This document shows positions 1 through 30,830 of a stretch of 64,000 nucleotides of DNA, piece after piece (the stretch's first letter is position 1; each line of letters starts with the position of its first letter). The stretch is from Escherichia virus TH43. A program made the position numbers and the translations under genes. The notes under the pieces were generated by a model that worked only from the letters and a program-made list of their open reading frames with translations, was not told where the DNA came from and ran no database searches. The stretch lies in sequence record MT446414.1. One strand, written 5' to 3'.

Positions 1-207
1 GGCTAACAAAGCTCTTGGTGGTGATTGTATTCAATTATTCAACACAAGACAAGAGGCTCGTCTTGCTAAGAAAACTATAAAAGCTACAAAAGCTTTAGGA
101 ATCGCTGAAAAGGTGGAGATTCATCGTTGGATTGAAAATATCCAGAACAGTGCTGGATTCATATCCAGCAAGGTTTATTACTAGTTGGTAGTAGATATGA
201 TAACTCT

Positions 208-230
208 CAAATGTATATACAGTATAAGAA
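208..230 (+). promoter_or_regulatory. candidate phage-specific promoter motif (AAATGTATATACAGTATAAG)
   Basis: member of the recurrent TAATGTA(T)ATA motif family; lies upstream of the first ORF. Confidence 0.35.
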
Positions 231-236
231 TATTGT

Positions 237-584
237 ATGAAACAGGAGAGAGTTATGTTAGATTTGAGTAAAGTGGCCCCGCCATCTGAAGAGATTAGCA
301 AAGCTAAAGTTATGCAGCAGTTCTATCATCGTGATATGCTTGGTCGTTATATCAAGAATCGTGATGTTGTTGCATGGTCTATTGGAAATCAAGGTTATCT
401 TCTCAAAGTGTTGCAAGTTACTGGCTCAACAGCCAAGCGTGTTAAGGTGTATGACCCTGAAATGGGGCGTTCTAAGTCTGTAGACCCACAGAACTGCATT
501 GTTATTACCCAGCAGGTCATGGACAACATTGCTCGTAACGTAGCCAATTCAACCAACTTAGAAGGAGAGACTCCTAATGCATAA
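237..584 (+). CDS. hypothetical protein (more likely start ATG 255 after RBS AGGAGAG)
   Basis: ORF track; RBS at 243-249. Confidence 0.5.
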   Translation: MKQERVMLDLSKVAPPSEEISKAKVMQQFYHRDMLGRYIKNRDVVAWSIGNQGYLLKVLQVTGSTAKRVKVYDPEMGRSKSVDPQNCIVITQQVMDNIARNVANSTNLEGETPNA

Positions 585-1143
585 TAATGTCTTCGACTTA
601 CCTGAACTAACACGAGTGGGTTCTAGTAACCCATTCTCTACAACTGACTCCTCTATCTCTCGTCTTGAGGGAATGAATAAACTGATCAGCGGTAACAGTC
701 TAGAGCACATCCTATGCGGTGTGCAGGCTAACCTTGAGCTTCTACACATCAAAGCAAAGAATTACCACTGGAACGTCTCTGGAGCTGGTTTCCAAGGTGT
801 TCATGGTATGTTCGATGAATTAGAAGACTATGCTCGTGAAACAGGAGACCGAGTAGCTGAGCGAATGCGTTATCACTGTATCAAAGTGGATGCAACAGCT
901 AGTAGCTATCTTAGTTGTGCTTGGTTCAGAGAAGGTAGTGCTGATCTCGACATGGACGGTATGCTTTCCGACATGTGCATGACTCTGATGTGTATCATTG
1001 AAAAGATGGACGAGTTTGATTCAGACTTGTGCACCTATCCAGTAGACCAGAGTATGCTTCAAGAAATTAATGAAGGTCTTGGCAAGTTCTGTTACTTCGT
1101 CAAGAGCAACATGTCCCACTCTAGTGGTGACGTGTCTTACTAA
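577..1143 (+). CDS. hypothetical protein
   Basis: ORF track; RBS GGAGAG upstream; start overlaps previous stop. Confidence 0.55.
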   Translation: MHNNVFDLPELTRVGSSNPFSTTDSSISRLEGMNKLISGNSLEHILCGVQANLELLHIKAKNYHWNVSGAGFQGVHGMFDELEDYARETGDRVAERMRYHCIKVDATASSYLSCAWFREGSADLDMDGMLSDMCMTLMCIIEKMDEFDSDLCTYPVDQSMLQEINEGLGKFCYFVKSNMSHSSGDVSY

Positions 1144-1164
1144 TCAAACCTCCGCCCTGTCTCT

Positions 1165-1386
1165 TTGTTTAAGAGGTGGGGCGAACTTCTTTATAAGGAT
1201 GTGAATATGTTTTCAGCAATCGTATGGTCTGTGTGGGCAATTCTTGTTGGTGGTATCGTTTATCTGGCTCAGAAACAGATGCTTAAAGAAAATCCGAATG
1301 ATGCTAAACCCATTAAACATGGCAGCATTGCTCTGGTAATTTTCTCTGTTGTCATTCCTTTCCTTCTCCACCTGTTGACTGCATAA
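1165..1386 (+). CDS. small membrane protein (alternative start 1207); paralog of the next ORF
   Basis: hydrophobic helices; RBS AAGGA before ATG 1207. Confidence 0.45.
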   Translation: MFKRWGELLYKDVNMFSAIVWSVWAILVGGIVYLAQKQMLKENPNDAKPIKHGSIALVIFSVVIPFLLHLLTA

Positions 1387-1395
1387 GGGTTTGAT

Positions 1396-1581
1396 ATGAT
1401 TTCACTGATTGTGTGGGCCGTGTGGTCGTTAATAGTTGGTACTGTTATATATAAAGCTCGAAATTTAGCAATTAAAGAAAACCCAGCAGAAGAGGATGTT
1501 AAAGCTATCAAGCTAGGTAGTGTTGTTCTGGTACATTTTGCTATAACACTACCTCTTGTTATTATTCTTTGTATGCTGTAA
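1396..1581 (+). CDS. small membrane protein; paralog of 1165..1386
   Basis: shared VW-x-W..LVGG..Y.A....KENP...K.IK.GS pattern. Confidence 0.45.
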   Translation: MISLIVWAVWSLIVGTVIYKARNLAIKENPAEEDVKAIKLGSVVLVHFAITLPLVIILCML

Positions 1582-1593
1582 GGAACCTGAAGA

Positions 1594-1770
1594 ATGAAAC
1601 TAAAACTCCCTGAAGAGTTGCAAGCACACGCCATTATTGTTAGTGGCTGTGTGATGGGTCTTGGTCAGACAAAGAAGATTGCTCATGACTTAGCAAAAGG
1701 TCAGTATAAATCTTTTATTGTTGTTCCTGCTACCCAGCGTCATATCAACCTGTTTATTAACAAGGAATAG
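1594..1770 (+). CDS. small hypothetical protein (58 aa, below track cutoff)
   Basis: manual translation; RBS AAGGAA 9 nt upstream. Confidence 0.35.
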   Translation: MKLKLPEELQAHAIIVSGCVMGLGQTKKIAHDLAKGQYKSFIVVPATQRHINLFINKE

Positions 1771-1771
1771 A

Positions 1772-2047
1772 ATGAGTAAAGTAATTAAGTTTTACAGTAA
1801 TTCATGTGCTCCGTGTGCAGCTATGGCTCCTGTGTTTAAGAAGGTTGTGGCTGACTACAGTGTAGAAGTTGAAGAAGTAAATATCTCTGAAGGTGATGGT
1901 CGAGAGCGAGCCATTGAATACGGTGTTCGCAGTATCCCAGCCTTTGTCGTCCCTGATAAGAATAGTGGTGCTCATTATAGTTTATCAGGTATGCAAACTG
2001 AATCTAATCTCCGTGCATTTTTAGACACGGCTCTGAAAGGTATTTAA
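1772..2047 (+). CDS. thioredoxin-fold redox protein (CxxC)
   Basis: N-terminal KFYSNSCAPCAAMAPVF motif; RBS AAGGAA. Confidence 0.6.
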   Translation: MSKVIKFYSNSCAPCAAMAPVFKKVVADYSVEVEEVNISEGDGRERAIEYGVRSIPAFVVPDKNSGAHYSLSGMQTESNLRAFLDTALKGI

Positions 2048-2048
2048 T

Positions 2049-2264
2049 ATGGAAAAGAAACCTTGGATTACTTTTTGGGTAGTTAAGTGGTTTAATTTTG
2101 ATAGCACAATCCCTAGTTTCTCCTCATATACAACACGGAGAGAGGCTCGCCGCTTTAAGCGAGCTTTAAAAATTGCTAACACTGGCGCTTCTAAGATTAC
2201 AATTCAGAAAGGGATTGAAACAGAAAGTGGAAGCAACATGATTTATAAAAAGATTCATTATTAA
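2049..2264 (+). CDS. hypothetical protein
   Basis: ORF track. Confidence 0.4.
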   Translation: MEKKPWITFWVVKWFNFDSTIPSFSSYTTRREARRFKRALKIANTGASKITIQKGIETESGSNMIYKKIHY

Positions 2265-2278
2265 GGAAGAGTTCAAGG

Positions 2279-2929
2279 ATGAATGAACAATTACAAGCAA
2301 CACTAATCGAAGCAATGGGTTCTGATAAATCTGTTGTTAATGCAGCTCGAGTTTCCTTTGGGGTTACTCGTGAAGGAGAGTTAAATGAACGAGATGAACG
2401 CCTTATCAAATTCCTTGCCAGAGAAAAGCATGTCACACCATTCCGTCATCCGACAATTAGCTTCCGATGCAAAGCGCCAATCGCAATTGCGAGACAGTTG
2501 GGCAAGCATCAAGTTGGATTCTCGTGGAACGAAATGTCCCGGCGGTATAAAGATGGAGCAGTTGAACTCTTCATCCCTAAAGAGATTTTTGAAAGACCTT
2601 CGGACCTCCATGCAGGTGCAGGGAATCTCCTCACCACAGGAGCACAAAACTCTGCACTAGTTCTGATTAATCGAGCATATGAAACAGCTCTTGAGTCGTA
2701 CGATGAATTGATTAAGTTCATTGCTCCAGAACAAGCTCGATTCGTATTACCTCAGGGTATGATCACTGAGTGGGTATGGACTGGTTCTCTATATGGTTGG
2801 TCAGAGTTGTGTCGTCAGAGATTGTCAGACCATGCTCAGTACGAAGTACGAGTGTTCGCATCAACAATTGATGAAGAGCTTCGTAAAATATACCCAATCT
2901 CTTGGGATGCATTACGTGAAGCCCACTAA
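2279..2929 (+). CDS. thyX: flavin-dependent thymidylate synthase ThyX-like protein
   Basis: AARVSF...TPFRH...FRCKAPIAIARQ...SWNEMSRRY resembles the ThyX core; canonical RHR appears as KHQ. Confidence 0.6.
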   Translation: MNEQLQATLIEAMGSDKSVVNAARVSFGVTREGELNERDERLIKFLAREKHVTPFRHPTISFRCKAPIAIARQLGKHQVGFSWNEMSRRYKDGAVELFIPKEIFERPSDLHAGAGNLLTTGAQNSALVLINRAYETALESYDELIKFIAPEQARFVLPQGMITEWVWTGSLYGWSELCRQRLSDHAQYEVRVFASTIDEELRKIYPISWDALREAH

Positions 2930-3101
2930 AGCATGTAGCTTCTGTCGAAAGCAGAAGCTTCTTATCAATTTCAAACTGAATGAGGAAACAGGTTTGGGTC
3001 ATGCTTTTTGTCATGATTGCAGGCACTACCTCGAACAGAAGCAATACATAAACTGGTTGCATTACTACAACCCTAACATCTATAATCACAAGGTTATCTA
3101 A
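2906..3101 (+). CDS. small zinc-ribbon protein (CxxC...CxxC); overlaps thyX 3' end; start uncertain
   Basis: ORF track 2793..3101; Cys pairs CSFC and CHDC. Confidence 0.35.
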
Positions 3102-3581
3102 ATGAAAGCTATTTTTGAAGGAAGGGAGTATGATGTTCCTGATTGGGTTAAATACATAGCCCGTGACTATGATAATCTGGTTTGGGCATATGGAGACGTA
3201 AGACCTGTGTTTAATGAAAACACTGGTAGTTGGTCTAACATGTCAAAATTGCCAGGATTTATTCGGGCACTTGGCTCTTCTAGTCGTCCTGTAGGTTTCG
3301 CTGCTGACTCACTTGTTGAGGTTGGTGTTGAAAAGGAAATAGACAAGCCAGAAACGATTTGGGTTTTATCTTCGAGTACCCCAATCAAAGGGAGTCGTGG
3401 GATTTCCTTCTATGTTGAACCGGTCGCTTACTTCAAAAATAAGCCAACCATCAACGCTCTGATGTTAAAGAACATTCCTTATTCACAAGTTGCTACTCTG
3501 TTAGATAATGGTACAGTGCTTGTTGAGAATAATGGGACAAATCAAATCTTTTATGATTTAGAAGAAAGGGTTTTGGAATGA
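3102..3581 (+). CDS. hypothetical protein
   Basis: ORF track. Confidence 0.5.
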   Translation: MKAIFEGREYDVPDWVKYIARDYDNLVWAYGDVRPVFNENTGSWSNMSKLPGFIRALGSSSRPVGFAADSLVEVGVEKEIDKPETIWVLSSSTPIKGSRGISFYVEPVAYFKNKPTINALMLKNIPYSQVATLLDNGTVLVENNGTNQIFYDLEERVLE

Positions 3582-3787
3582 GAATCTACAAATTAAGTCT
3601 ATGCTTTAGTGAATGGACTCACGACACAGAAGTAAAAGCAACTTATTACAAAGACCGTCCTACTCGTGGTCAGCTGATGCTAGATGGTATGGGTAGTGAT
3701 GCTTGTGATGTTGTTCTTCAATACGGAGCTGTTCAGGACTCTTCTCCCGGATATGTTTGGAAACTTGGGATTATTGAGGTTAAGTAA
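3578..3787 (+). CDS. hypothetical protein
   Basis: ORF track; ATGA overlap with previous gene. Confidence 0.45.
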   Translation: MRIYKLSLCFSEWTHDTEVKATYYKDRPTRGQLMLDGMGSDACDVVLQYGAVQDSSPGYVWKLGIIEVK

Positions 3788-4000
3788 ATGAAAGGTTTAG
3801 TATTAGGAAAACATCGATTTACTTTCCGTATCTCAGACAGGAATCCATACCCCACCAAGATTGAACCTTATGAGATTATCTCTGAAGTGTTTATCTGGCC
3901 TTGGCAAAGCATCTATGATGTTGCCCTTAAATCCAAGAAGAAGCTGATACCTGTTGGTATTTGGGCTGATGTTGATTTAATTAAAATCGAAAAGGTTTAA
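3788..4000 (+). CDS. hypothetical protein
   Basis: ORF track. Confidence 0.45.
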   Translation: MKGLVLGKHRFTFRISDRNPYPTKIEPYEIISEVFIWPWQSIYDVALKSKKKLIPVGIWADVDLIKIEKV

Positions 4001-4001
4001 A

Positions 4002-4322
4002 ATGATTAATGATAATACATTTAGGACTGGTAACGGAAACGAGATTAGTCCTGCTGAAGTGATTAAACGACACAGAACGCAGATGCTTATCCACTCCTAT
4101 TTGTATTATTGGTTGGATGACCCAATCTGGTCTGATGATAAATGGCAACAAGTGGCTGATGACTTAACCACTTTGCAAGAGATGTATCCTGAGCCTATTG
4201 GATTCTTTGATTCAGAGTTCAATGGGTGGAATGGCTCTACTGGTATGCATCTCCCTCATGACGAGCGTATTGCTTGTATGGCTACTGAAGTATATCGTTT
4301 ACATAAGGACAAATCTATCTGA
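4002..4322 (+). CDS. hypothetical protein with NAD-ligase domain Ia-like motif
   Basis: HSYLYYWLDDPIWSDDKW...LQEMYPE resembles the LigA N-terminal Ia domain (recalled). Confidence 0.45.
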   Translation: MINDNTFRTGNGNEISPAEVIKRHRTQMLIHSYLYYWLDDPIWSDDKWQQVADDLTTLQEMYPEPIGFFDSEFNGWNGSTGMHLPHDERIACMATEVYRLHKDKSI

Positions 4323-4500
4323 AATGTTTTAAATGTGAATCCACTCTTCTCCATCTGGACTCGAAAGTAATACGAGAGCTTGCTAAAGGCTCTCCGACGA
4401 AAGGGAAGAATAAGAAATTTGTCGAAGTTAAGGTTATAGGTACTCATTGTTCAGAGTGTAAATCCTGTAGCTACACGTATGAAGAACTTGGAGGTAGAAA

Positions 4501-5238
4501 ATGAATCGCAGAGAAACTCGTAGAGAAGCACGGAAAGCAGCTCGTCGTGGTGAACAGGTGACTAATAAAGGTAAACGTGAGTATCAAGAAGTTGTTCTTG
4601 CTAAGCCTGTAGTCCCTCAGAATCAGTTTCAATCCGAACTGCTCAATGCTATCAAGACTAAACAAGTAGTCTTTACGGATGCTCCTGCTGGCTGTGGTAA
4701 GACCTATGTTATCACAACAACAGTTATTGATGCTCTGAAAAGTGGAAAGATTCAAAAGATTATCCTAAGCCGGCCTGCTGTTGGTATGGGTAACTCACTT
4801 GGATTACTTCCCGGTGGATTGCGTGAGAAGTTCGAACCTTACCTGATGCCTATCGTTGATGTTATCACTCAGCGTTACGGTAAAGGCTTCTACGAGTGTC
4901 AAATTGGTAATGGTAACATAGAGTTCGTACCTCTGGAATACCTCCGTGGTCGTTCGTTCAATGATGCTATTGTGATTGTTGACGAGTTTCAGAACACCAC
5001 CCCTGATGAAGCATATTCTATTATGACTCGTCTTGGTGAAACCTCTCAGATGTTCTGTATGGGTGACACTAACCAGCACGACATGCGTGGTGAGAGTGGT
5101 TTGGAATGGGCTACTGACTTCATTGACAAGCACAACCTGTTTGAGTTTGCTGCTTTGGTTGATGGTGAGTCAGATGATATTGTTCGTTCAGGTTTCTGTA
5201 AAGCTATTGTTAAAGCAATGGAATCTGAAAAATCCTAA
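4501..5238 (+). CDS. phoH: PhoH-like ATPase
   Basis: Walker A GCGKTY; Walker B VIVDEFQN; PhoH-like LEYLRGRS block. Confidence 0.75.
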   Translation: MNRRETRREARKAARRGEQVTNKGKREYQEVVLAKPVVPQNQFQSELLNAIKTKQVVFTDAPAGCGKTYVITTTVIDALKSGKIQKIILSRPAVGMGNSLGLLPGGLREKFEPYLMPIVDVITQRYGKGFYECQIGNGNIEFVPLEYLRGRSFNDAIVIVDEFQNTTPDEAYSIMTRLGETSQMFCMGDTNQHDMRGESGLEWATDFIDKHNLFEFAALVDGESDDIVRSGFCKAIVKAMESEKS

Positions 5239-5239
5239 A

Positions 5240-5256
5240 CATAATGTATACTCCTT
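5240..5256 (+). promoter_or_regulatory. candidate phage-specific promoter motif (ATAATGTATACTCC)
   Basis: TAATGTATA-like motif 27 nt upstream of the 5283 gene. Confidence 0.35.
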
Positions 5257-5282
5257 AGTGTACACTGATATATTAAGGAGTT

Positions 5283-5600
5283 ATGATGACTGATAAGGCA
5301 AAACGTGATTATGCACAAGAACGAAGAACTGCAATCGCAAGGGGTGAAACCGGCGTTGGTAGCAAGAGCGGAGATGCTCAGCGCCACCGTGCACGTCGCA
5401 TCGTTGAAAAGCGCGATGGAAAAGCTGCTGTCCGAGGTAAAGATGTTGGACATAAACGATCAATCAAGTCGGGAGGTTCTAATGCGTCAAGTAACTTACG
5501 TGTTGAATCAGTCTCTGGAAATCGCTCGAACGGCGGCAAAAGTGGAGATCGTGCTGGAAAATCAGCAGGCGGTCGCAAAGGAGCTTTAAGCTCAAGTTAA
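5283..5600 (+). CDS. basic Gly/Ser/Arg-rich protein
   Basis: RBS AGGAG before ATG 5283; terminator follows. Confidence 0.5.
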   Translation: MMTDKAKRDYAQERRTAIARGETGVGSKSGDAQRHRARRIVEKRDGKAAVRGKDVGHKRSIKSGGSNASSNLRVESVSGNRSNGGKSGDRAGKSAGGRKGALSSS

Positions 5601-5604
5601 TATA

Positions 5605-5636
5605 AGGCTACCCATTTCGGGTGGCCTTTTCTTTTA
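5605..5636 (+). terminator. rho-independent terminator
   Basis: AGGCTACCC-ATTTC-GGGTGGCCT hairpin followed by a T-tract. Confidence 0.6.
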
Positions 5637-5656
5637 TATAATCTAAGGTAGTAAAT

Positions 5657-5908
5657 ATGTCTAAAGTAACTTATATCACTGTAACTGATTTCCTCCCTTC
5701 TCAGAATGTAACTGAGAGCTACACTTTTCCTGTAGAAAATGTTACAAGCTCTGTTGAAATGATTCAGTTTAACCCAACAACAGCTCGCACTAATGTAGCC
5801 CTTCGTGGTGCTAATGGTAAGTTCATCTCCTTCCGTGATAAGAGTGTTCCTAAGCGTATTGCTAAGTCTATTGAAAACCTGAAACCTTTCCCTAACTTTG
5901 GTGCATAA
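5657..5908 (+). CDS. hypothetical protein; paralog of the next ORF
   Basis: shared TARTNV.LRG..GKF.S.RD...NLKPFP. Confidence 0.5.
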   Translation: MSKVTYITVTDFLPSQNVTESYTFPVENVTSSVEMIQFNPTTARTNVALRGANGKFISFRDKSVPKRIAKSIENLKPFPNFGA

Positions 5909-6167
5909 TATGAAGATCAGCTTAATCCAAATCCGTGATCATCTTTTTAATGGTGATGCTCAGACTCATGATTACAAGGTTAATCAAGGACAACACCCTA
6001 CCAACCACCTGATTGGAGGGATTTCTTTATTGCCTAATAAAACAGCACGAACTAATGTAATGATTCGTGGTAAGGATGGAAAATTCCTTTCTTATCGTGA
6101 TCTTGAAATCTGTGCTGATGTTCGTACAGCTATGAACAATCTGAAACCTTTCCCGACAGTGGAGTAA
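5898..6167 (+). CDS. hypothetical protein; paralog of 5657..5908 (possible start 5910)
   Basis: shared TARTNV.IRG.DGKF.SYRD...NLKPFP. Confidence 0.5.
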   Translation: MVHNMKISLIQIRDHLFNGDAQTHDYKVNQGQHPTNHLIGGISLLPNKTARTNVMIRGKDGKFLSYRDLEICADVRTAMNNLKPFPTVE

Positions 6168-6170
6168 GTT

Positions 6171-6524
6171 ATGCCAGTACCTCAACGCCTAGAACGTCAC
6201 TGCGTTCTCAAATGGGACAATATTCATGACAACCTCTCCATTCAAGAGTTTCGTCAGTTTATTGAATTAACAGCGAAGATTAACCGAAACCAACCAGCTC
6301 GAAACTTTGTAGTGGTTAGTGATAAGTATCCTGAGTTGTATGAGCAGGTGTGGGGTATGAAACTTGCACAGGTTCAGAGAAACAGCAATGAACGAAGAGA
6401 AACTCGTAGACAGCGAGCAGAAGATATTCCAGCAGTCTTTTATGTGGATGAATTAACGGAATCCTATGAACAGTTAGATATTGTCGAGGATAACCAAGCG
6501 TTCACTGATTTAATATACCAATAA
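6171..6524 (+). CDS. hypothetical protein
   Basis: ORF track. Confidence 0.5.
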   Translation: MPVPQRLERHCVLKWDNIHDNLSIQEFRQFIELTAKINRNQPARNFVVVSDKYPELYEQVWGMKLAQVQRNSNERRETRRQRAEDIPAVFYVDELTESYEQLDIVEDNQAFTDLIYQ

Positions 6525-16754: not shown

Positions 16755-19700
16755 TTACTCTTTAGCTCGAACTCTAACCCGGAGTTTAGCTTGACGCTTA
16801 CTTCTCTCCAACTTGTCAGACAGAGAACCACGTTTGACTTTCAACTCTCCCTCGTCATTATACTTCTCCAAGAACTGTAAATACTCTTGTCGAGTAGTTG
16901 TCTTGTAAGAAGGAATCTTAACATCAGGATTCTCTTCAATCACACGTCTAATCTTCGCTACATCATCCCGCCCTAAAAGTTTCCCTTTAGCTTGTTCAGC
17001 AGTAGAACCAAAGATTTTCTCCAGTGCTCTAGATTTGTTACCACCCGCTGAAGCAGCACCAAGTTTCGCAATAGCAGAGTAATCGTCAGCACTAAACCAA
17101 GCCACTGGATTATCTCCATATTGTTTCTTGTTCTCCGCAGCAGTTTGTAAAGCACGCACAAAGCGACGGTTATTACCAGCTTTGTCAGCACCATGAACCC
17201 TATCTAGAACTTCTGCTACACTAGCCAGCTCCTGCAAGTCTTTCCCTTCGATAAAAGCTTTCTCTGCTTTGTTAGCAAAGTCATCTTCCTGCTTCTTAAT
17301 ACTTTCCAGTATATCAGAGGAGGCTTGAGACCTTTCATCTTCCGGCAACGCCGAACGAACTTTCTCCATTTCCAACTCTTCATCCTGAAGTTTCTTCAAC
17401 TCAGAATCTACCTTCCTAGCATCTTCGATAGCTTTCGAAGTATCTGCATCCACCTCTACCTTCCCATCCATATCACCAGTTGCCTTAGCAATATCTTTCT
17501 CGATTGGTGTCATCTTCTCAAAATCCTTAGCAAACTTTGAAATATCCGATTCAATACGAGAACGAGCATTCTGGTGCTCAGTAGGAGTCATAGGTTTCTC
17601 CAGAAGAGAGTAACGGTTATCCATATAAGAACCTGCAAAGATTTCTGCATCTTCTTTAGGAATCCCTTTATCCTCCATAGAACGCATCAGGCGCTTATGA
17701 ATGTCATCACGTTGGCGTTGTATTGCCATGCGATCGTTCTCTGCTTCCTGAGCTTCTTTGAGCTTCTTGTCACGTTGTACACGGGAATCAATGTCGTATT
17801 TACGGTTCATCTCTTCCGCCTGTTCGTACATCTTATTCCACTTAGCTTCTCGAGCATCTTCTTCCGCTTCAGTGAGACGACGCTTACGGTCAATGTAATC
17901 ACTTTCTGCGTTGTGGATACGTTCGATAATACTACGGAAACGCTCCGGTGGCACAGGAGAGTTCTTATCGTGGTGAGCTGCTAACTGTTTCAGTGTACGA
18001 CCTTCCTGAGACTCACGTACCGACTCTGGTAAATCTTTCAACAGGTTCTCCATCTCCGATTTCTGAGCCGCTATAGCTTCGAGAGACTGTCTTTCTGTCT
18101 CTACTGCTGCCTTGGCATCACTACGAGCTTTAGCCCTGTTACGGAGCGTCTCAAGACGTTCTTGACGTGCTTGCAAATGTTTAGCTGCTGCTTCGTACTG
18201 AGAGTTCTTATTAGCTTTGTTGAACATGTTAACTTCACGGTTATATGTGTTAATGAAGCCATCCCATATATCCTTCATCTGTCCCACTTCCAAAGCATCT
18301 TCCCTTCCAGCCTTCTCTGAAGCTTTAAACTTCCCATCTACAAAGTCTTCCATCAACTTACGCATAGCATCTTTTTGAGCTGGACGTAATGGCTCTGCAT
18401 CAAGAAGTAAATTGATTTCGCTGTGTAACTCTTTCTTCTGGTCAACCAGCTTAGGAGCATCAGCTTTATCAAGCTTCTTATTCTCTGCAAGAGCTTCTTC
18501 ATACATCCTATTAAATTCATCATCACGTTGTTTCTGATACAGACGTTCAGACCTACGCTTCAGTGAGTCTAGACTAGTCACGTTCCCACCAATACCTTTC
18601 TCCTCAGCACGTAATGCCTTGGTAGCAATATCAGAAGGTAGACCACGTTCCTTAACCCAATCAGCAAACGAAGAACGAACACGTTGTGACTTAGCAGCAG
18701 CAATACCCTGTTGAGAAGCAAGTTGGTTACGAGCCATCTCAGCATGACGTTCAGCATTGTTGGCTTGGTCTTCCTGACGGATACGACGCATCAACTCTTT
18801 CGGGTCACCTTTATAAGAAAGGAAGTTCTCAGCTGTGGCTTTAGCCTTAGCACCTGCCGTATACAGAGAACGAGCAAAGCGATCTGCACGATCTTTAGTA
18901 GCTTGACGGGCAGCACTTGACATAGCAGCCAGACGCTCTATTCCAGTAGCTGGTTTAACAGGCTCAGGCTCAACCTCAGGAGCTTTAGGAGCACGGGTAG
19001 GTAATGGCTCGGCTTGAACGATAGGCTCCTCAGGAACGCTCTCAGCAGCCTTGCTAGCCTCTTCTGCTTCTTGACGTTTACGAGCTTCTGCAACAGCACG
19101 ACGCTGAGCAACTAAATCCCTTGCGGTAGTAACTGGTTCTTGTGGAACTGGCTCTGGAGTTGGTTCTTCCTGAACCCTGTTAGCTTCGGCTTCTTGACGT
19201 CTAGCTTCAGCTTCCTTCAAAGCACGTCTCTGTGCGACCAAATCACGAGCAGTTAAAGGAGAGGTTTCTGGAGAGGAAATTTCTTCCGTCACAGTAGTAG
19301 CAGAAGGCTCCCGAACCGGTTCGATTTCCGTGTCATTTTGAGTCTTAAATTTAATGTCATCAACTTCAGGTTCTTTCTCCATCGCAGCACGGGCTTCATC
19401 AGCCTGAGCACGAGCACGAGTTACTTCCATATCACTACGAGCAAGAGAACGAATAGCTTCACTGTTAGCAGCCTGCTGGCTTTCACGTTGAGAGCGAGCA
19501 CGGTCAGAACGGAAACGGTTAAGAACATGCTTAGCAGCACCAAGAGGATTCTTAATCAGAACTGGAGGAGCAGCTTCTTTAAAACCATCAGCAGTCAGAG
19601 AAGTCCAACCACGGTCTTGGTTACTCATTAACTTAGCTGTGTTATTCAGAGTGAAAGCATCTTGGATTGGGTTGAAACCTTCAGGCATTCCTTTAAGTTT

Positions 19701-21173
19701 CTTCAAACCACCAATAGCAGTTTTCATTTCTGGAGATACATTATCAGCCAGTTTCTGAAGCTCTGTAGCTTTCTCTATGAAGTTATTAAAGTCTTCACCA
19801 TCACGAGCTTTGAATCGATTAGCTTCGTTATAGAAAGTTTTATAAGCATCAATGAAATCACGATCTGCTTGGGTACGATTCTTAATGTCCATAGCACTAC
19901 CAGTAAAATCACCACTGGCACGAGCAGCTGTTAATTCACGATCAAGGTTATCCAGAACATCAGACAAAGATTTAGTGTTGTCTTTTGTATAATCAGCCAT
20001 TGCATCTTTCATTGCCACAGCTTGTTTCTGGTTATGTTCGTTGTCTGCGTTAGCTTTACCTTGCTTCTTATTAGGAGCAGCAAGAGGATTTAAACCCGGA
20101 ACATTAGAACGATCTTCCAGAATAGTAGCAGCCTTCTCGGCACGACTTTGATCAGTATTAAGGATACGCTGAGCAGCAGGAGAGTCCATAGCCACAGCAT
20201 CAGTAACACGGAAACCGTTCTCATCGAGGAGATTAAGAGCAGAAGCTGTGTTAGCGTTATCAGCTTTAGAGTAAGCCTCTCTTAGTTCGTCTGCATTTTT
20301 AGCTGAGCGAATAGCTTCATCTTCAGCGGCAATGTCAGTCTTAACGTGTTCTGGAGTACGGTCAAAGACTTGAGGACTAGGACGACTTATCAATCCATGA
20401 ACCCCACCAATAGCCCCACCGTAAGCAGCACCCATCGCACCTTCTTCTACAGCACCTTCAATGATATTAGCAAGAGTAGTGTCATCACCATATTTGTTCT
20501 GTGCTTCAGCAGCACCTACAAGAGCACCACCTTTAGCACCAGCCACTGCGTTAGATGCTACACTCTGACCAACACGACCTAGGGTAGTAGAAGCAGTGCC
20601 TGTCATCCCCGGAAGAATCTTCTGAGCTGCAAAGTTAGCACCACCAACTAAACCAGCATCAAGAACAGACTTCTCTTCACCCTCTTCTGGAGTTTGGTCT
20701 GCATAAGCTCTACCTGTTTCACGAGCTGCAATAACAGCAGCAGCTACAGCTGGGTTAGCAACCGTAAGACCAATATCAGCGGCAACGCCAGCATACTGAC
20801 CTACAGATTTACCTACACCATCTTCGATTTGAGAGAGACGTTCTTCTAGTAAGTTTTTAGAGTTGTCTTGAATACGCTTACCGTAACTTGTCTGTGTACC
20901 AGCTAGATTTTCTCCAATCTCAACTAATCCACCAATACCTCTAGCAGCACTGGCTGCAATGTTTGCACCACCTGATTGAATAGCGTTGGACACACCTTGG
21001 GCAAAATCACCAACCAACCCCGGTTGCTCTTCTTGTTTAGGAGCTGGAGCAGCCTCAGGAATCGTTCCACCCGCTGCTTTATACTGTTCTCGCATCTGAG
21101 ACTGTTGCTCAGGGGAGGCATTCAAATACGCAGGGCTTTTAGAAGCTTCTTCCCACGGTTTTAAGTTCGCCAT
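16755..21173 (-). CDS. large virion structural protein (internal/ejection protein candidate), 1472 aa
   Basis: long charged coiled-coil regions with internal tandem repeat; last gene of late block. Confidence 0.55.
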   Translation of the reverse strand: MANLKPWEEASKSPAYLNASPEQQSQMREQYKAAGGTIPEAAPAPKQEEQPGLVGDFAQGVSNAIQSGGANIAASAARGIGGLVEIGENLAGTQTSYGKRIQDNSKNLLEERLSQIEDGVGKSVGQYAGVAADIGLTVANPAVAAAVIAARETGRAYADQTPEEGEEKSVLDAGLVGGANFAAQKILPGMTGTASTTLGRVGQSVASNAVAGAKGGALVGAAEAQNKYGDDTTLANIIEGAVEEGAMGAAYGGAIGGVHGLISRPSPQVFDRTPEHVKTDIAAEDEAIRSAKNADELREAYSKADNANTASALNLLDENGFRVTDAVAMDSPAAQRILNTDQSRAEKAATILEDRSNVPGLNPLAAPNKKQGKANADNEHNQKQAVAMKDAMADYTKDNTKSLSDVLDNLDRELTAARASGDFTGSAMDIKNRTQADRDFIDAYKTFYNEANRFKARDGEDFNNFIEKATELQKLADNVSPEMKTAIGGLKKLKGMPEGFNPIQDAFTLNNTAKLMSNQDRGWTSLTADGFKEAAPPVLIKNPLGAAKHVLNRFRSDRARSQRESQQAANSEAIRSLARSDMEVTRARAQADEARAAMEKEPEVDDIKFKTQNDTEIEPVREPSATTVTEEISSPETSPLTARDLVAQRRALKEAEARRQEAEANRVQEEPTPEPVPQEPVTTARDLVAQRRAVAEARKRQEAEEASKAAESVPEEPIVQAEPLPTRAPKAPEVEPEPVKPATGIERLAAMSSAARQATKDRADRFARSLYTAGAKAKATAENFLSYKGDPKELMRRIRQEDQANNAERHAEMARNQLASQQGIAAAKSQRVRSSFADWVKERGLPSDIATKALRAEEKGIGGNVTSLDSLKRRSERLYQKQRDDEFNRMYEEALAENKKLDKADAPKLVDQKKELHSEINLLLDAEPLRPAQKDAMRKLMEDFVDGKFKASEKAGREDALEVGQMKDIWDGFINTYNREVNMFNKANKNSQYEAAAKHLQARQERLETLRNRAKARSDAKAAVETERQSLEAIAAQKSEMENLLKDLPESVRESQEGRTLKQLAAHHDKNSPVPPERFRSIIERIHNAESDYIDRKRRLTEAEEDAREAKWNKMYEQAEEMNRKYDIDSRVQRDKKLKEAQEAENDRMAIQRQRDDIHKRLMRSMEDKGIPKEDAEIFAGSYMDNRYSLLEKPMTPTEHQNARSRIESDISKFAKDFEKMTPIEKDIAKATGDMDGKVEVDADTSKAIEDARKVDSELKKLQDEELEMEKVRSALPEDERSQASSDILESIKKQEDDFANKAEKAFIEGKDLQELASVAEVLDRVHGADKAGNNRRFVRALQTAAENKKQYGDNPVAWFSADDYSAIAKLGAASAGGNKSRALEKIFGSTAEQAKGKLLGRDDVAKIRRVIEENPDVKIPSYKTTTRQEYLQFLEKYNDEGELKVKRGSLSDKLERSKRQAKLRVRVRAKE

Positions 21174-27824: not shown

Positions 27825-30800
27825 TTATCTTCGACCGCCAACAGCAAACTCTATGGTTAAACCATTCATAGACGCATTACTGTTAACATCATTATCTATA
27901 ACATTATAGAATAGGTATGGATGGTTCAGTCTGACTGCTACGTGACGATCTACACCAACCCTAAACTCTTTAGTAGAATGGTTGTGTCCATACTCGTTAG
28001 AGAATTGACTACCACCTGCTTCAAAAGTATAAGTCCCTGTTCCTGTTACTTGAGGTCTAAATCGGTTAATGTGTTTCTGATTCCATTCATTAGTGACGTT
28101 ATCAAAATCAATCCCCGTTCTCTCTAGTCTCATTTCCAGAGGCTTCTCTATAACCACATCATTTGTTCTGTCATAGATATAATCCAAAGCTCCTATATCA
28201 ACTTGGTAGAATCCTTTCAAGAAAGAACCTATGATTGTAACTCTCTGACGGAAGTTAGTTGCATCTTTTCTCCACACCAGTTTGTCAATCGAAGGGTCAT
28301 CCCAAGTGATCTCTTGGAAATCAGCCCAGATAGGACCACGTTCCAGAACCGGAGGATCAACCAGACCAATACAGTAAGAGTAAGGAATCGTACGGAAAGA
28401 CCAAGTATCGAACTCATAATTCCATACTGCTGCTTTAGTACAGGCAAAACTTTCCTTAGGCTCACCCGGACCTACATAAAGAACCCATACTTCTTTCTTA
28501 TCCTGATGAAGATGAACTCGTGTAGCAATTGGGTTCACCAGACAAATCTCATTAATGAGCATGTTCTTCACTCGGTTAGAAGCAATAGATTTCTTAGAAG
28601 CACCATTGTGCAGAATGACGTCGTTCTGAGTTACCACAAAGTGACCACCTTCAACTTCCACCACACACTCAGGAGCAAGTATCCCTGAATCATTAAACAG
28701 CTTTTTAAACATCAAAGGCTGATATGTGTTGTTAGTAGGAGAGCCGATATAAGTTTCAAACTCAGTGTAAACGAACAGATAATCTTTCAGAGGAAGAACA
28801 TCTAACAAACTACCATTAGAGTCAGCCAAATCAATATATCCTGCATAACCATTCTCAAGAGCTTCTGTCTGTCCTACGATGTTAGCTGCTAGGTCAGAAC
28901 TCACTGCTCGGTCATATGCATAATCATCCCAAAGCTGAGGGGCTTTGTTTTCCTCTGCAAAGTTAGACCAACGCAAACGAAGAGGGTAGTGAGTAGTAAC
29001 ACCAGAGGCATTAGACTCTCTCATATTCAGAGCAAACAGTCTATTGTTAAAAGCTCTCACTCGTTCACATTTCCAGTTATACTTCTTAACAGAAGGATTA
29101 CCATCTGCATCAACAACCGTCTGCTCACCCCATCCCGGAAGGTCAGTGAAGTATTCAGAATCGAATTCCTTAACCTGAGGAGTTTCGTAGTGAGTAGTTG
29201 CTACTGCACAGTTAGAGATGATCGCATGATACCAAGGATAATCTTCAAACGCATCATAGTCTTTCTGAACCATCTGGCTTACAGTACAAGTCACTTTAAC
29301 CTCACCCTTACGAATAGCAGTAAGTTTCAAAGTTGAGTTAGTTGTAGAAGTAGTAGAAACATAACCACTCTTATCAACTGTCCACTTGTAAGTATAGCTT
29401 CCAGTAGGAGATGCTGTAGCTGTGATAACAATCTCTTCACCTACATCAAGAGAGGCATCAATAACATCAAGAGTAACTCCAGTCAAAGGTGGATCATTAG
29501 CAAGCATTGCTGCTCTACCAAAACCTTCCAAGTCCATGACGTTAGAGTAGTCGTAGAAGTTGTTTCCTTCCGCCATCCCTGTTGTATCAATGCCAATTGT
29601 ATCAGCGTCAAAATAAGTAACTTCTTCTGACTCAACAATTGGTTCTTCTACAGGAGCTTCTGTAGTGATAGTCATTGCTGACATAGCCCTACTTGCCAGA
29701 CGAGAAGATAAATCAACACGTACAGTACAAACTGCTGAACGACCTCCTTCCGCTGTAACTGCTGTAATCTCTGTATACCCCGCAAGCAATCCAGTTATTG
29801 TAGCTTCTGTACCTGTACCACTTACTGTAGCAATGTTGGTGTTAGAAGAAGTCCAAGTGATCGTTTGGTTGGGTGCGTTAGCTGGACTAACTGTTGCAGT
29901 TAAGATGTACTGAGTACCACGACTCATTTGAATATCTGTCTGACTTAATGTGATGCTATCAATTTGAGGTATTGCTGTTACTGTACAAGATGCAGTCTTT
30001 GTTCCATTATCAGCAGTTATAGTTACCTGTCCTTCTCCAAGAGCTGTAAGAACAACTGTCTTTGTATTAGCATTAGGAGAAACAGAAACTAAGGATGGGT
30101 TAGAGGAAGACCAAGTTACAGACGGTTTGCCTGTAATTGCTGTAAGGGTTGATGTACCACCTTTACGCACAGTCAAAGTGTCTTGGCTCAAATAGATACC
30201 TGAATCACTATCAAGGATGTTAACTGCAATCTGAGCTGAGATAGATTCATCAGATGTGCTCACTGTCACAACTAAATTACCTTCAACAGACTTAGAAGTT
30301 AGGGTAGCCTTCTTGGAGTCAGTAGGGTCAACTTCAATACTACCATAAGAAGAGTTGCTTACTTCCCAAACTAGATTAGCATTTTGAGCATCTGTAGGGG
30401 TGACTTCAACTTCGAGAATCTTGGTCTGGTTAAAATTCATAGATACAGAAGTCTCTTTAGGAACAATATTTGAGACTACTGGATAAATCTTAATTGTCGC
30501 TGATGCTTTCTTTGTCGCTGTAGCAACCTTACGGCTGATATCAGTTAAACTCTCGTCGGTAAGTTTATACAGTTTCTTATCTGTACCTACCACAAGAAAG
30601 CTATTACCTGCGCTATAATAATCGAAAGGCATTGAAAGGAATGAGAGAGGAGTCAGATCTTTATCTTCGTCTACATAAGAAAGAGGGGCATTGCCCCCCG
30701 TCTTAAAGACTCTCTGCTCAACAAACCGAGCATTAATAGCGTTAGTGAAAGCATTTGGTGCTAAGTCAGTAGGTGCTTGGTCAGCGATAACCCCAACTGC

Positions 30801-30830
30801 GCCTAGTGATTTAATTGGATAGAGAGCCAT
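27825..30830 (-). CDS. large tail protein with Ig-like (BIG2-type) domains, 1001 aa
   Basis: repeated Ig-like segments (VTV..TD..A......SSN...A.V...G). Confidence 0.55.
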   Translation of the reverse strand: MALYPIKSLGAVGVIADQAPTDLAPNAFTNAINARFVEQRVFKTGGNAPLSYVDEDKDLTPLSFLSMPFDYYSAGNSFLVVGTDKKLYKLTDESLTDISRKVATATKKASATIKIYPVVSNIVPKETSVSMNFNQTKILEVEVTPTDAQNANLVWEVSNSSYGSIEVDPTDSKKATLTSKSVEGNLVVTVSTSDESISAQIAVNILDSDSGIYLSQDTLTVRKGGTSTLTAITGKPSVTWSSSNPSLVSVSPNANTKTVVLTALGEGQVTITADNGTKTASCTVTAIPQIDSITLSQTDIQMSRGTQYILTATVSPANAPNQTITWTSSNTNIATVSGTGTEATITGLLAGYTEITAVTAEGGRSAVCTVRVDLSSRLASRAMSAMTITTEAPVEEPIVESEEVTYFDADTIGIDTTGMAEGNNFYDYSNVMDLEGFGRAAMLANDPPLTGVTLDVIDASLDVGEEIVITATASPTGSYTYKWTVDKSGYVSTTSTTNSTLKLTAIRKGEVKVTCTVSQMVQKDYDAFEDYPWYHAIISNCAVATTHYETPQVKEFDSEYFTDLPGWGEQTVVDADGNPSVKKYNWKCERVRAFNNRLFALNMRESNASGVTTHYPLRLRWSNFAEENKAPQLWDDYAYDRAVSSDLAANIVGQTEALENGYAGYIDLADSNGSLLDVLPLKDYLFVYTEFETYIGSPTNNTYQPLMFKKLFNDSGILAPECVVEVEGGHFVVTQNDVILHNGASKKSIASNRVKNMLINEICLVNPIATRVHLHQDKKEVWVLYVGPGEPKESFACTKAAVWNYEFDTWSFRTIPYSYCIGLVDPPVLERGPIWADFQEITWDDPSIDKLVWRKDATNFRQRVTIIGSFLKGFYQVDIGALDYIYDRTNDVVIEKPLEMRLERTGIDFDNVTNEWNQKHINRFRPQVTGTGTYTFEAGGSQFSNEYGHNHSTKEFRVGVDRHVAVRLNHPYLFYNVIDNDVNSNASMNGLTIEFAVGGRR

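Follow-up and report, generated by a model that had tools for sequence, protein, structure and literature searches.

The 64,000-nucleotide stretch of Escherichia virus TH43 analysed here (sequence record MT446414.1; hereafter the window) comes from a phiEco32-like E. coli podophage. Between two of its plus-strand genes, one encoding a stand-alone Nlig-Ia domain and the other a PhoH-like ATPase, lies an open frame that has no ATG. As judged by comparison with its relatives, it is a genuine gene that has been conserved and is orthologous to phiEco32 gp61. We consider it likely that the frame encodes a functional 61-residue protein with four cysteines (Cys4), whose translation would start at a CUG codon at position 4319 with the help of a Shine-Dalgarno (SD) sequence and probably through termination-reinitiation; in this explanation the Nlig-Ia and zinc-ribbon genes are two separate small genes in an early/middle operon of a phiEco32-like coliphage. 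Initiation at CUG 4319, a contribution from coupling, and the binding of zinc are what we infer from the sequence. The elements concerned are as follows.

4319..4504, plus strand: zinc-ribbon gene, 61 amino acids including the initiator, Cys4, phrog_14369, orthologue of phiEco32 gp61; predicted product M-KCFKCESTLLHLDSKVIRELAKGSPTKGKNKKFVEVKVIGTHCSECKSCSYTYEELGGRK.
4319..4321, plus strand: CTG, putative initiation codon of the zinc-ribbon gene, overlapping the Nlig-Ia stop TGA (4320-4322) as CTGA.
4304..4309, plus strand: Shine-Dalgarno-like UAAGGA within the 3' end of the Nlig-Ia gene, 9 nt upstream of the CTG; anti-SD duplex -5.9 kcal/mol.

An earlier reading of these letters alone (the sequence-only reading) had described, downstream of the Nlig-Ia open reading frame (ORF), a -1 frame with two CxxC pairs, no ATG, and an ATGA overlap with phoH. 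All of these features are present. The frame, which is -1 relative to the Nlig-Ia ORF, is open from 4307 to a TGA at 4502-4504 (65 sense codons, reading GQIYLKCFKCESTLLHLDSKVIRELAKGSPTKGKNKKFVEVKVIGTHCSECKSCSYTYEELGGRK), and no ATG, GTG, or TTG codon occurs anywhere in it from 4307 to 4504. (The frame had been said to end at 4502; the frame is real, but 4502 is the first base of its stop codon, which ends at 4504.) It contains the motifs KCFKC and HCSEC, plus a third Cys (CSECKSC), and its TGA overlaps the phoH ATG (4501-4503) as ATGA. The window contains eight stop-to-stop frames of at least 60 codons without a canonical start, and openness alone is therefore not evidence for a gene. (The other start-less frames on the plus strand, 17389-17613 with 74 codons and 29337-29630 with 97 codons, lie antisense inside the minus-strand ORFs 16755..21173 and 27825..30830 and are most likely chance open frames.) Unlike those two, the zinc-ribbon frame fills a 178-nt intergenic gap and has clear homologues, with E-values from 3e-30 to 9e-15. 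In the profile search that the sequence-only reading had proposed for this peptide, phrog_14369 matches with E 2.6e-25, residues 1-60 falling on profile positions 2-61. Position 1 of the profile, a Met, therefore falls on the window CTG at 4319-4321.

An annotated counterpart is found in phiEco32, where a 61-amino-acid coding sequence, phi32_61, lies between the Nlig-Ia gene and phoH (MKCSRCEGTNLHLSNKVIRELAKGSPTKGKNKRFTNVRVYTAICKDCLTTECHYEEIGERK). It has the same length as the window zinc ribbon, four invariant Cys residues, and an invariant IRELAKGSP.KGKNK core; throughout the family, C2, C5, C43, and C46 are invariant (CxxC...CxxC). Thus, phiEco32 gp61 (phi32_61, ABY52862.1) is, like the window product, a 61-residue Cys4 protein encoded immediately upstream of phoH with an ATGA overlap. 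It differs in how it begins: gp61 has an ATG start, a 14-nt overlap with the upstream gene, a +1 frame, and almost no SD, whereas the window gene has a CTG start, a 4-nt CTGA overlap, a -1 frame, and the UAAGGA SD.

To survey the start codon, the zinc-ribbon frame was extracted from 20 related loci and the codon preceding K/N/A-C-x-x-C was read. With more distant relatives included, this comparison, which had also been proposed beforehand, shows ATG, GTG, TTG, or CTG at the orthologous position, so that all four NTG codons are found at a single start site. ATG is present in phiEco32, SU7, SU10, and the IMG/VR contigs L005 (a phiEco32 copy) and L006; GTG is present in Bas89, KBNP1711, Bas93, Bas94, EP335, LAMP, Paul, and L007; and CTG is present in the window, Bas88, TH34, TH42, ECBP2, Bas87, 4E8, and UKE3. 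More distant metagenomic relatives have ATG (L021-L024), GTG (L038), or TTG (L039 and L040). Because all of the more distant relatives examined have a canonical start (ATG, GTG, or TTG), the CTG is most readily understood as a derived state of this clade, where the start would have changed from ATG. Of the three options that had been raised for the frame (a non-canonical start, a second frameshift site, or a decayed gene), it is the first that is borne out by the canonical codon in relatives, the CTG here, and the purifying selection described below.

A sequencing error as the source of the CTG is ruled out. Besides the window, the codon was read directly in nine phage or assembly sequences, and the exact CTG junction occurs in three independent metagenome contigs. 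In addition, 20 GenBank records are at least 90% identical to window positions 4290-4510 over essentially the whole stretch; the CTG form appears to occur in about 20 GenBank records. In each CTG-type sequence that was read, the Nlig-Ia stop lies in a CTGA, the 61 codons of the frame run on without interruption, and the junction with phoH is ATGA. The annotation of the gene is inconsistent. It is absent in Bas88 (PQ850628) and is given as a 49-residue product from a TTG in Bas87 (PQ850594) and UKE3 (MZ234017), but it is called at full length, as a 61-residue coding sequence from the CTG, in two independent depositions: phage 4E8 (OQ689734; WJJ57341.1) and a 76.5-kb phage contig filed under Shigella sonnei (EFV9058482.1). 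Gene callers usually miss or truncate the gene because its putative start is the rare codon CTG.

Selection on the frame was assessed by comparing the window with ECBP2, both of which belong to CTG lineages, using the ratio (omega) of nonsynonymous (dN) to synonymous (dS) divergence and a binomial P for an excess of synonymous change. The values for the frame and for its two neighbours are these.

Zinc ribbon: dS 0.40, dN 0.052, omega 0.13, binomial P 5e-4.
Nlig-Ia: dS 0.16, dN 0.016, omega 0.10, binomial P 1.3e-4.
phoH: dS 0.84, dN 0.063, omega 0.08, binomial P 3e-28.

The zinc-ribbon frame is under purifying selection, with an omega similar to those of its neighbours. Between the window and the ECBP2 sub-clade, the first 12 zinc-ribbon codons, which include the first CxxC, contain only two differences, both of which are synonymous. 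The single difference just 5' of the CTG, T/A at 4316, is synonymous in the Nlig-Ia frame and would change Tyr to Asn in the zinc-ribbon frame, a pattern that fits translation beginning at the CTG. Taken together, the selection, the first 12 codons, and the change at 4316 argue both against a pseudogene and against the 49-residue product annotated in Bas87 and UKE3.

The CTG has features expected of a gene initiated at CUG: canonical starts in the orthologues, a suitably spaced SD, and a 4-nt stop-start overlap. The duplex energy of the UAAGGA with the anti-SD can be compared with that at the same site in relatives: it is -0.9 kcal/mol in phiEco32 and SU7, which have the ATG start; two relatives with a GTG start give -2.8 and -3.0, and two metagenomic ones with an ATG start give -2.2 and -2.4. 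Consequently, the CTG clade has the strongest SD:anti-SD pairing of the contexts compared. The UAAGGA arises from synonymous Nlig-Ia codons, AAG GAC being used instead of AAA GAT/GAC. Weaker start codons tend to accompany stronger SD sequences (PMC5622118), and termination-reinitiation is supported by overlaps of -4 nt, which are over-represented among genes for subunits of complexes (PMC10666635). A predicted RNA hairpin at 4297-4340 on the plus strand contains both the UAAGGA and the CTG, an arrangement that would be anticipated if the site had to be opened by translation from upstream.

Documented natural 4-nt coupled overlaps use ATGA, GTGA, or TTGA; to our knowledge, CTGA is not a recognised coupling class. 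The window is like the NTGA termination-reinitiation systems in having a 4-nt stop/start overlap together with an SD inside the upstream gene, and its putative start is, as in the near-cognate CUG initiation seen in E. coli, a near-cognate NUG codon. The mechanism that these features suggest is that initiation would occur at CUG 4319, most likely with initiator tRNA, and that the strengthened SD 9 nt upstream would support it. Ribosomes ending on the overlapping Nlig-Ia stop (CTGA) would reinitiate at the CUG. The zinc-ribbon protein would be of low abundance, and its gene would hand over to phoH through the ATGA overlap.

Several points weigh against this explanation. CUG is a poor initiator in E. 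coli reporters, where it reaches about 1-2% of AUG (10.1101/063800), and evolutionary switches from AUG to CUG are very rare (2/61,358; PMC5622118). Because IF3, according to published work (PMC2268962), still proofreads during reinitiation, coupling may not rescue the CUG much. The energy of the 4297-4340 hairpin is no better than that of shuffled controls (z -1.2), and the zinc-ribbon dN/dS is based on about 19 substitutions only. A wider role for the product as a partner of PhoH, considered below, is weakened by three distant homologues that lie away from phoH.

A more elaborate form of the proposal combines three elements: the CUG would be a selected, attenuated start, usable only by ribosomes that terminate on the Nlig-Ia ORF and reinitiate; the PhoH ATPase would have the zinc ribbon as a phage-specific accessory subunit, coupled to it by the ATGA; and all four NUG codons would start one gene in this family. 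We regard this combination as unlikely. If it were true, zinc-ribbon synthesis would be tied, at a low fixed ratio, to the translation of a putative NAD+ sensor.

Among the alternatives to a start at CUG 4319, the one that survives best, although it is improbable, is a start at another near-cognate or internal codon of the same frame. Three such codons exist: ATC 4313, CTG 4355, and ATA 4370. The second of these is TTG in the ECBP2 sub-clade, and it is there that Bas87 and UKE3 annotate their shorter product. In the window, codon 4355 is again only a CTG, and a start at this position would remove the first CxxC, a motif that the whole family keeps unchanged and that lies within the 12 codons that vary only synonymously. 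ATC 4313 is only 3 nt after the SD, and the codon between it and CTG 4319 differs (Tyr/Asn) between the sub-clades.

It is more doubtful still that the gene has lost its start and is decaying, the frame being a not-yet-degraded pseudogene, as the sequence-only reading had also considered. The frame does contain no canonical start at all and is unannotated or truncated in most GenBank records, but the two CTG sub-clades have retained it at a dS of 0.40 with an omega of 0.13; stops and indels are absent from every copy read, in which the frame is intact; all four Cys residues are kept; and none of the canonical-start relatives compared has an SD as strong. Least probable of all is a programmed -1 frameshift within the 16-nt overlap 4307..4322, giving an Nlig-Ia-zinc-ribbon fusion of about 166 residues: the zinc-ribbon frame is indeed -1 relative to Nlig-Ia and open for four codons 5' of the CTG, and a metagenomic relative naturally fuses Nlig-Ia to a different zinc ribbon (protein P0012), but this ribbon is not visibly similar in sequence to that of the window (judged by eye), no X XXY YYZ slippery heptamer was found in 4290..4322, the phiEco32 frame is +1 with respect to Nlig-Ia and starts at an ATG of its own, and in many relatives other genes intervene (gp61.1, an ExoX-like_C protein, or NrdD). 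With no slippery site and a frame relation that varies between clades, frameshifting and decay are therefore both rejected in favour of a separate gene that would start at the CUG.

In an AlphaFold2 model of the protein that this gene would produce (predicted local distance difference test [pLDDT] 87.5), there are three long beta strands, and both CxxC knuckles lie at the same end. The most conserved segment of the protein is the basic loop IRELAKGSP.KGKNK. A Foldseek search of the model against the PDB gave nothing below E 0.4, and a Pfam search found no family above threshold, the best match being the generic Zn_ribbon_3CxxC (E 0.02). A link to the zinc finger of LigA was considered and rejected, since there is no Pfam match to the ligase zinc-binding domain and only generic zinc ribbons appear below threshold. 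A relation to the zinc ribbon of NrdR, prompted by weak Foldseek matches and by the NrdD/NrdG neighbours of distant homologues, was likewise rejected (hhalign probability 0.5%). A hidden Markov model search of 1.84 billion representative proteins returned only four zinc-ribbon clusters at 50% identity, and there is therefore no remote homologue of known function among them.

Among close relatives the constant neighbour of the zinc-ribbon gene is phoH, not Nlig-Ia, and the 4-nt ATGA overlap of the zinc-ribbon gene with phoH is present in all phiEco32-like loci examined. This constant junction would fit a partner of PhoH. However, the three most distant zinc-ribbon homologues do not adjoin phoH; they lie beside NrdD/NrdG or glutaredoxin genes, or among thioredoxin and ThyX genes. 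For this reason a partnership with PhoH is offered as a hypothesis only, and the zinc-ribbon product is described as a small Cys4 protein of a nucleotide-metabolism and replication gene cluster. (In contigs L022 at 311-3438, L035 at 1-4009, and L036 at 440-1456, the zinc-ribbon gene is between or near genes of the anaerobic ribonucleotide reductase, namely NrdD or a Gly_radical protein, and the radical-SAM activase NrdG. In L036 it overlaps nrdG rather than phoH, and in L034, where phoH is not adjacent, it is surrounded by thioredoxin and ThyX genes.)

The upstream gene, whose stop codon overlaps the CTG, is the following.

4002..4322, plus strand: stand-alone Nlig-Ia gene, 106 amino acids, ATG start, TGA stop at 4320-4322; orthologue of phiEco32 gp62 and ECBP2_0056.

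This ORF had been singled out for a motif resembling domain Ia of the bacterial NAD-dependent DNA ligase. The motif (HSYLYYWLDDPIWSDDKW...LQEMYPE) is present, and the resemblance is upheld at the level of profiles and of structure. Pfam PF22745 (Nlig-Ia; 'DNA ligase-like, N-terminal NAD+-binding domain') matches with E 1e-33 and 116.3 bits over profile positions 1-91 of 92, well above the curated gathering cut-off of 27 used as the criterion, and phrog_6466 matches with E 4.4e-38. A single-sequence phmmer search of the PDB finds LigA only at E about 0.2, below spurious STN1 matches. When a profile of 37 homologues is used, E. coli LigA ranks first (5tt5, 4glx, and 2owo; E 0.0025-0.009), and the alignment covers LigA residues 3-53, that is, domain Ia (best E 0.0025). 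The AlphaFold2 model (pLDDT 90) has three long helices, and the top 19 Foldseek matches to it in the PDB are all LigA, with probabilities up to 0.99; five of these superpose with a root-mean-square deviation of 0.6-0.9 A over 47 residues. The Foldseek E-values are weak (0.25-1.5) because the domain is short.

Sriskanda and Shuman (in 2002) reportedly identified Tyr22, His23, Asp32, Tyr35, and Asp36 as the residues of E. coli LigA domain Ia that contact nicotinamide mononucleotide (NMN). In the profile alignment, Tyr35 and Asp45 of the phage protein are identical to Tyr22 and Asp32 of this list, while Tyr36 corresponds to His23, Trp48 to Tyr35, and Gln49 to Asp36. Three of these positions are either identical or conservative in being aromatic, and at one an acidic residue has been replaced; the solo Nlig-Ia family does not vary at any of the five. 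More broadly, the two-helix core of LigA domain Ia (E. coli residues 1-70; PDB 2owo, 4glx, and 5tt5) superposes on the window model, and the LigA motif hEYLYHVMDAPEIPDAEY aligns with hsYLYYvlDdPiisDdkW of the window family. The window protein differs from LigA in that it is without the adenylation, OB, Zn-finger, HhH, and BRCT domains, and in that LigA Tyr35 and Asp36 are replaced by Trp and Gln. It also has two elements that are absent from LigA domain Ia in this comparison, an invariant F.DW.GSTGMHLP motif and the third long helix.

By homology, then, ORF 4002..4322 is a solo Nlig-Ia, a helical module predicted to bind NAD+/NMN. A Pfam search of the 106-residue protein found only Nlig-Ia, with no nucleotidyltransferase (adenylation, KxDG) or OB domain. 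The identity as a DNA ligase is rejected because nothing beyond Ia is present. (Bases 1-50,000 of the Bas88 genome, which is 98.9% identical, carry no annotation of a further ligase, and such phages have been described as lacking the ligase catalytic module [PMC9503650].) Nevertheless, this gene is misnamed 'DNA ligase' or 'NAD-dependent DNA ligase' in many GenBank records. The feature itself is already published: solo Nlig-Ia proteins have been described, with ECBP2_0056 as an example, and proposed to sense or shield NAD+ (Iyer, Burroughs, Anantharaman & Aravind 2022, Viruses 14:1977; PMC9503650). The window protein belongs to the same family, has a full-length profile match, is 97% identical to the ECBP2 copy, keeps the HSYLYY..D.P..SD..W motif and the LigA-Ia-like helical fold, and shows no substantive difference. 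As a separate observation, the fused protein P0012 (167 residues; L027 3001-3504 and L028 1732-2235), from a metagenomic phiEco32-like relative, joins Nlig-Ia (Pfam E 1.5e-27) to a C-terminal, compact CxxC...CxxC zinc ribbon (PCPSCKHNSLVYDPVEDFHVCWSCF) that has a weak TFIIB-type match (E 0.033).

For annotation, the label of the 106-residue protein should be solo Nlig-Ia NAD+-binding domain, not DNA ligase, and the 178-nt 'gap' that precedes phoH in phages like Bas88 and ECBP2 should be read as a conserved gene for a 61-residue zinc ribbon. Pipelines restricted to ATG, GTG, and TTG miss or truncate this gene. The locus also provides a small natural test case, in which one orthologous start has ATG, GTG, TTG, or CTG according to lineage and the CTG lineage has the stronger SD and an exact stop-start overlap; a possible use would be in measuring the extent to which a near-cognate start can be offset by coupling and SD strength. 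The novelty is limited to a well-supported new instance of a known phenomenon together with an annotation correction, with no new class of mechanism.

The surrounding operon is tightly packed on the plus strand and encodes, in order, Dps, thioredoxin, ThyX, small ORFs, ORF 4002..4322, the apparent gap, phoH, further small ORFs, and DNA polymerase. Over window bases 3000-6500, Escherichia phage StefiGeyer_Bas88 is 98.9% identical, and the phiEco32-like podophages (Gordonclarkvirinae) TH42, TH34, 4E8, ECBP2, IME267, and SU7 are 85-97% identical. Downstream of the zinc-ribbon gene lie the following.

4501..5238, plus strand: phoH-like ATPase gene, 245 amino acids; Pfam PF02562 PhoH, E 3.4e-57.
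4484..4489, plus strand: GGAGGT, a strong SD for phoH within the last zinc-ribbon codons; duplex energy -10.6 kcal/mol.

The pairing of this SD ends 4 nt 5' of the phoH ATG; the GGAGGT is retained in ECBP2-type phages as well as in relatives L022-L026 and L038-L040, and it is GGAGAG in phiEco32-type phages.

Several other small ORFs of the plus strand were noted. A 102-residue ORF at 2793-3101, which overlaps the end of thyX, carries CSFC...CHDC and resembles phiEco32 phi32_63 (CSFCKKEK...CHSCRIYLE); it is another small Cys4 protein of the same operon, and the Bas88 annotation has only a 61-residue version of it. Two adjacent ORFs at 5657-5908 and 5898-6167 (83 and 89 residues) look like tandem paralogues with the common motif ...ARTNV..RG..GKF.S.RD...NLKPFP. 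Finally, two adjacent small hydrophobic ORFs at 1165-1386 and 1396-1581 (73 and 61 residues), which have the motif W.VW..VG...Y.A....KENP in common, resemble tandem paralogues that encode a two-helix membrane protein.

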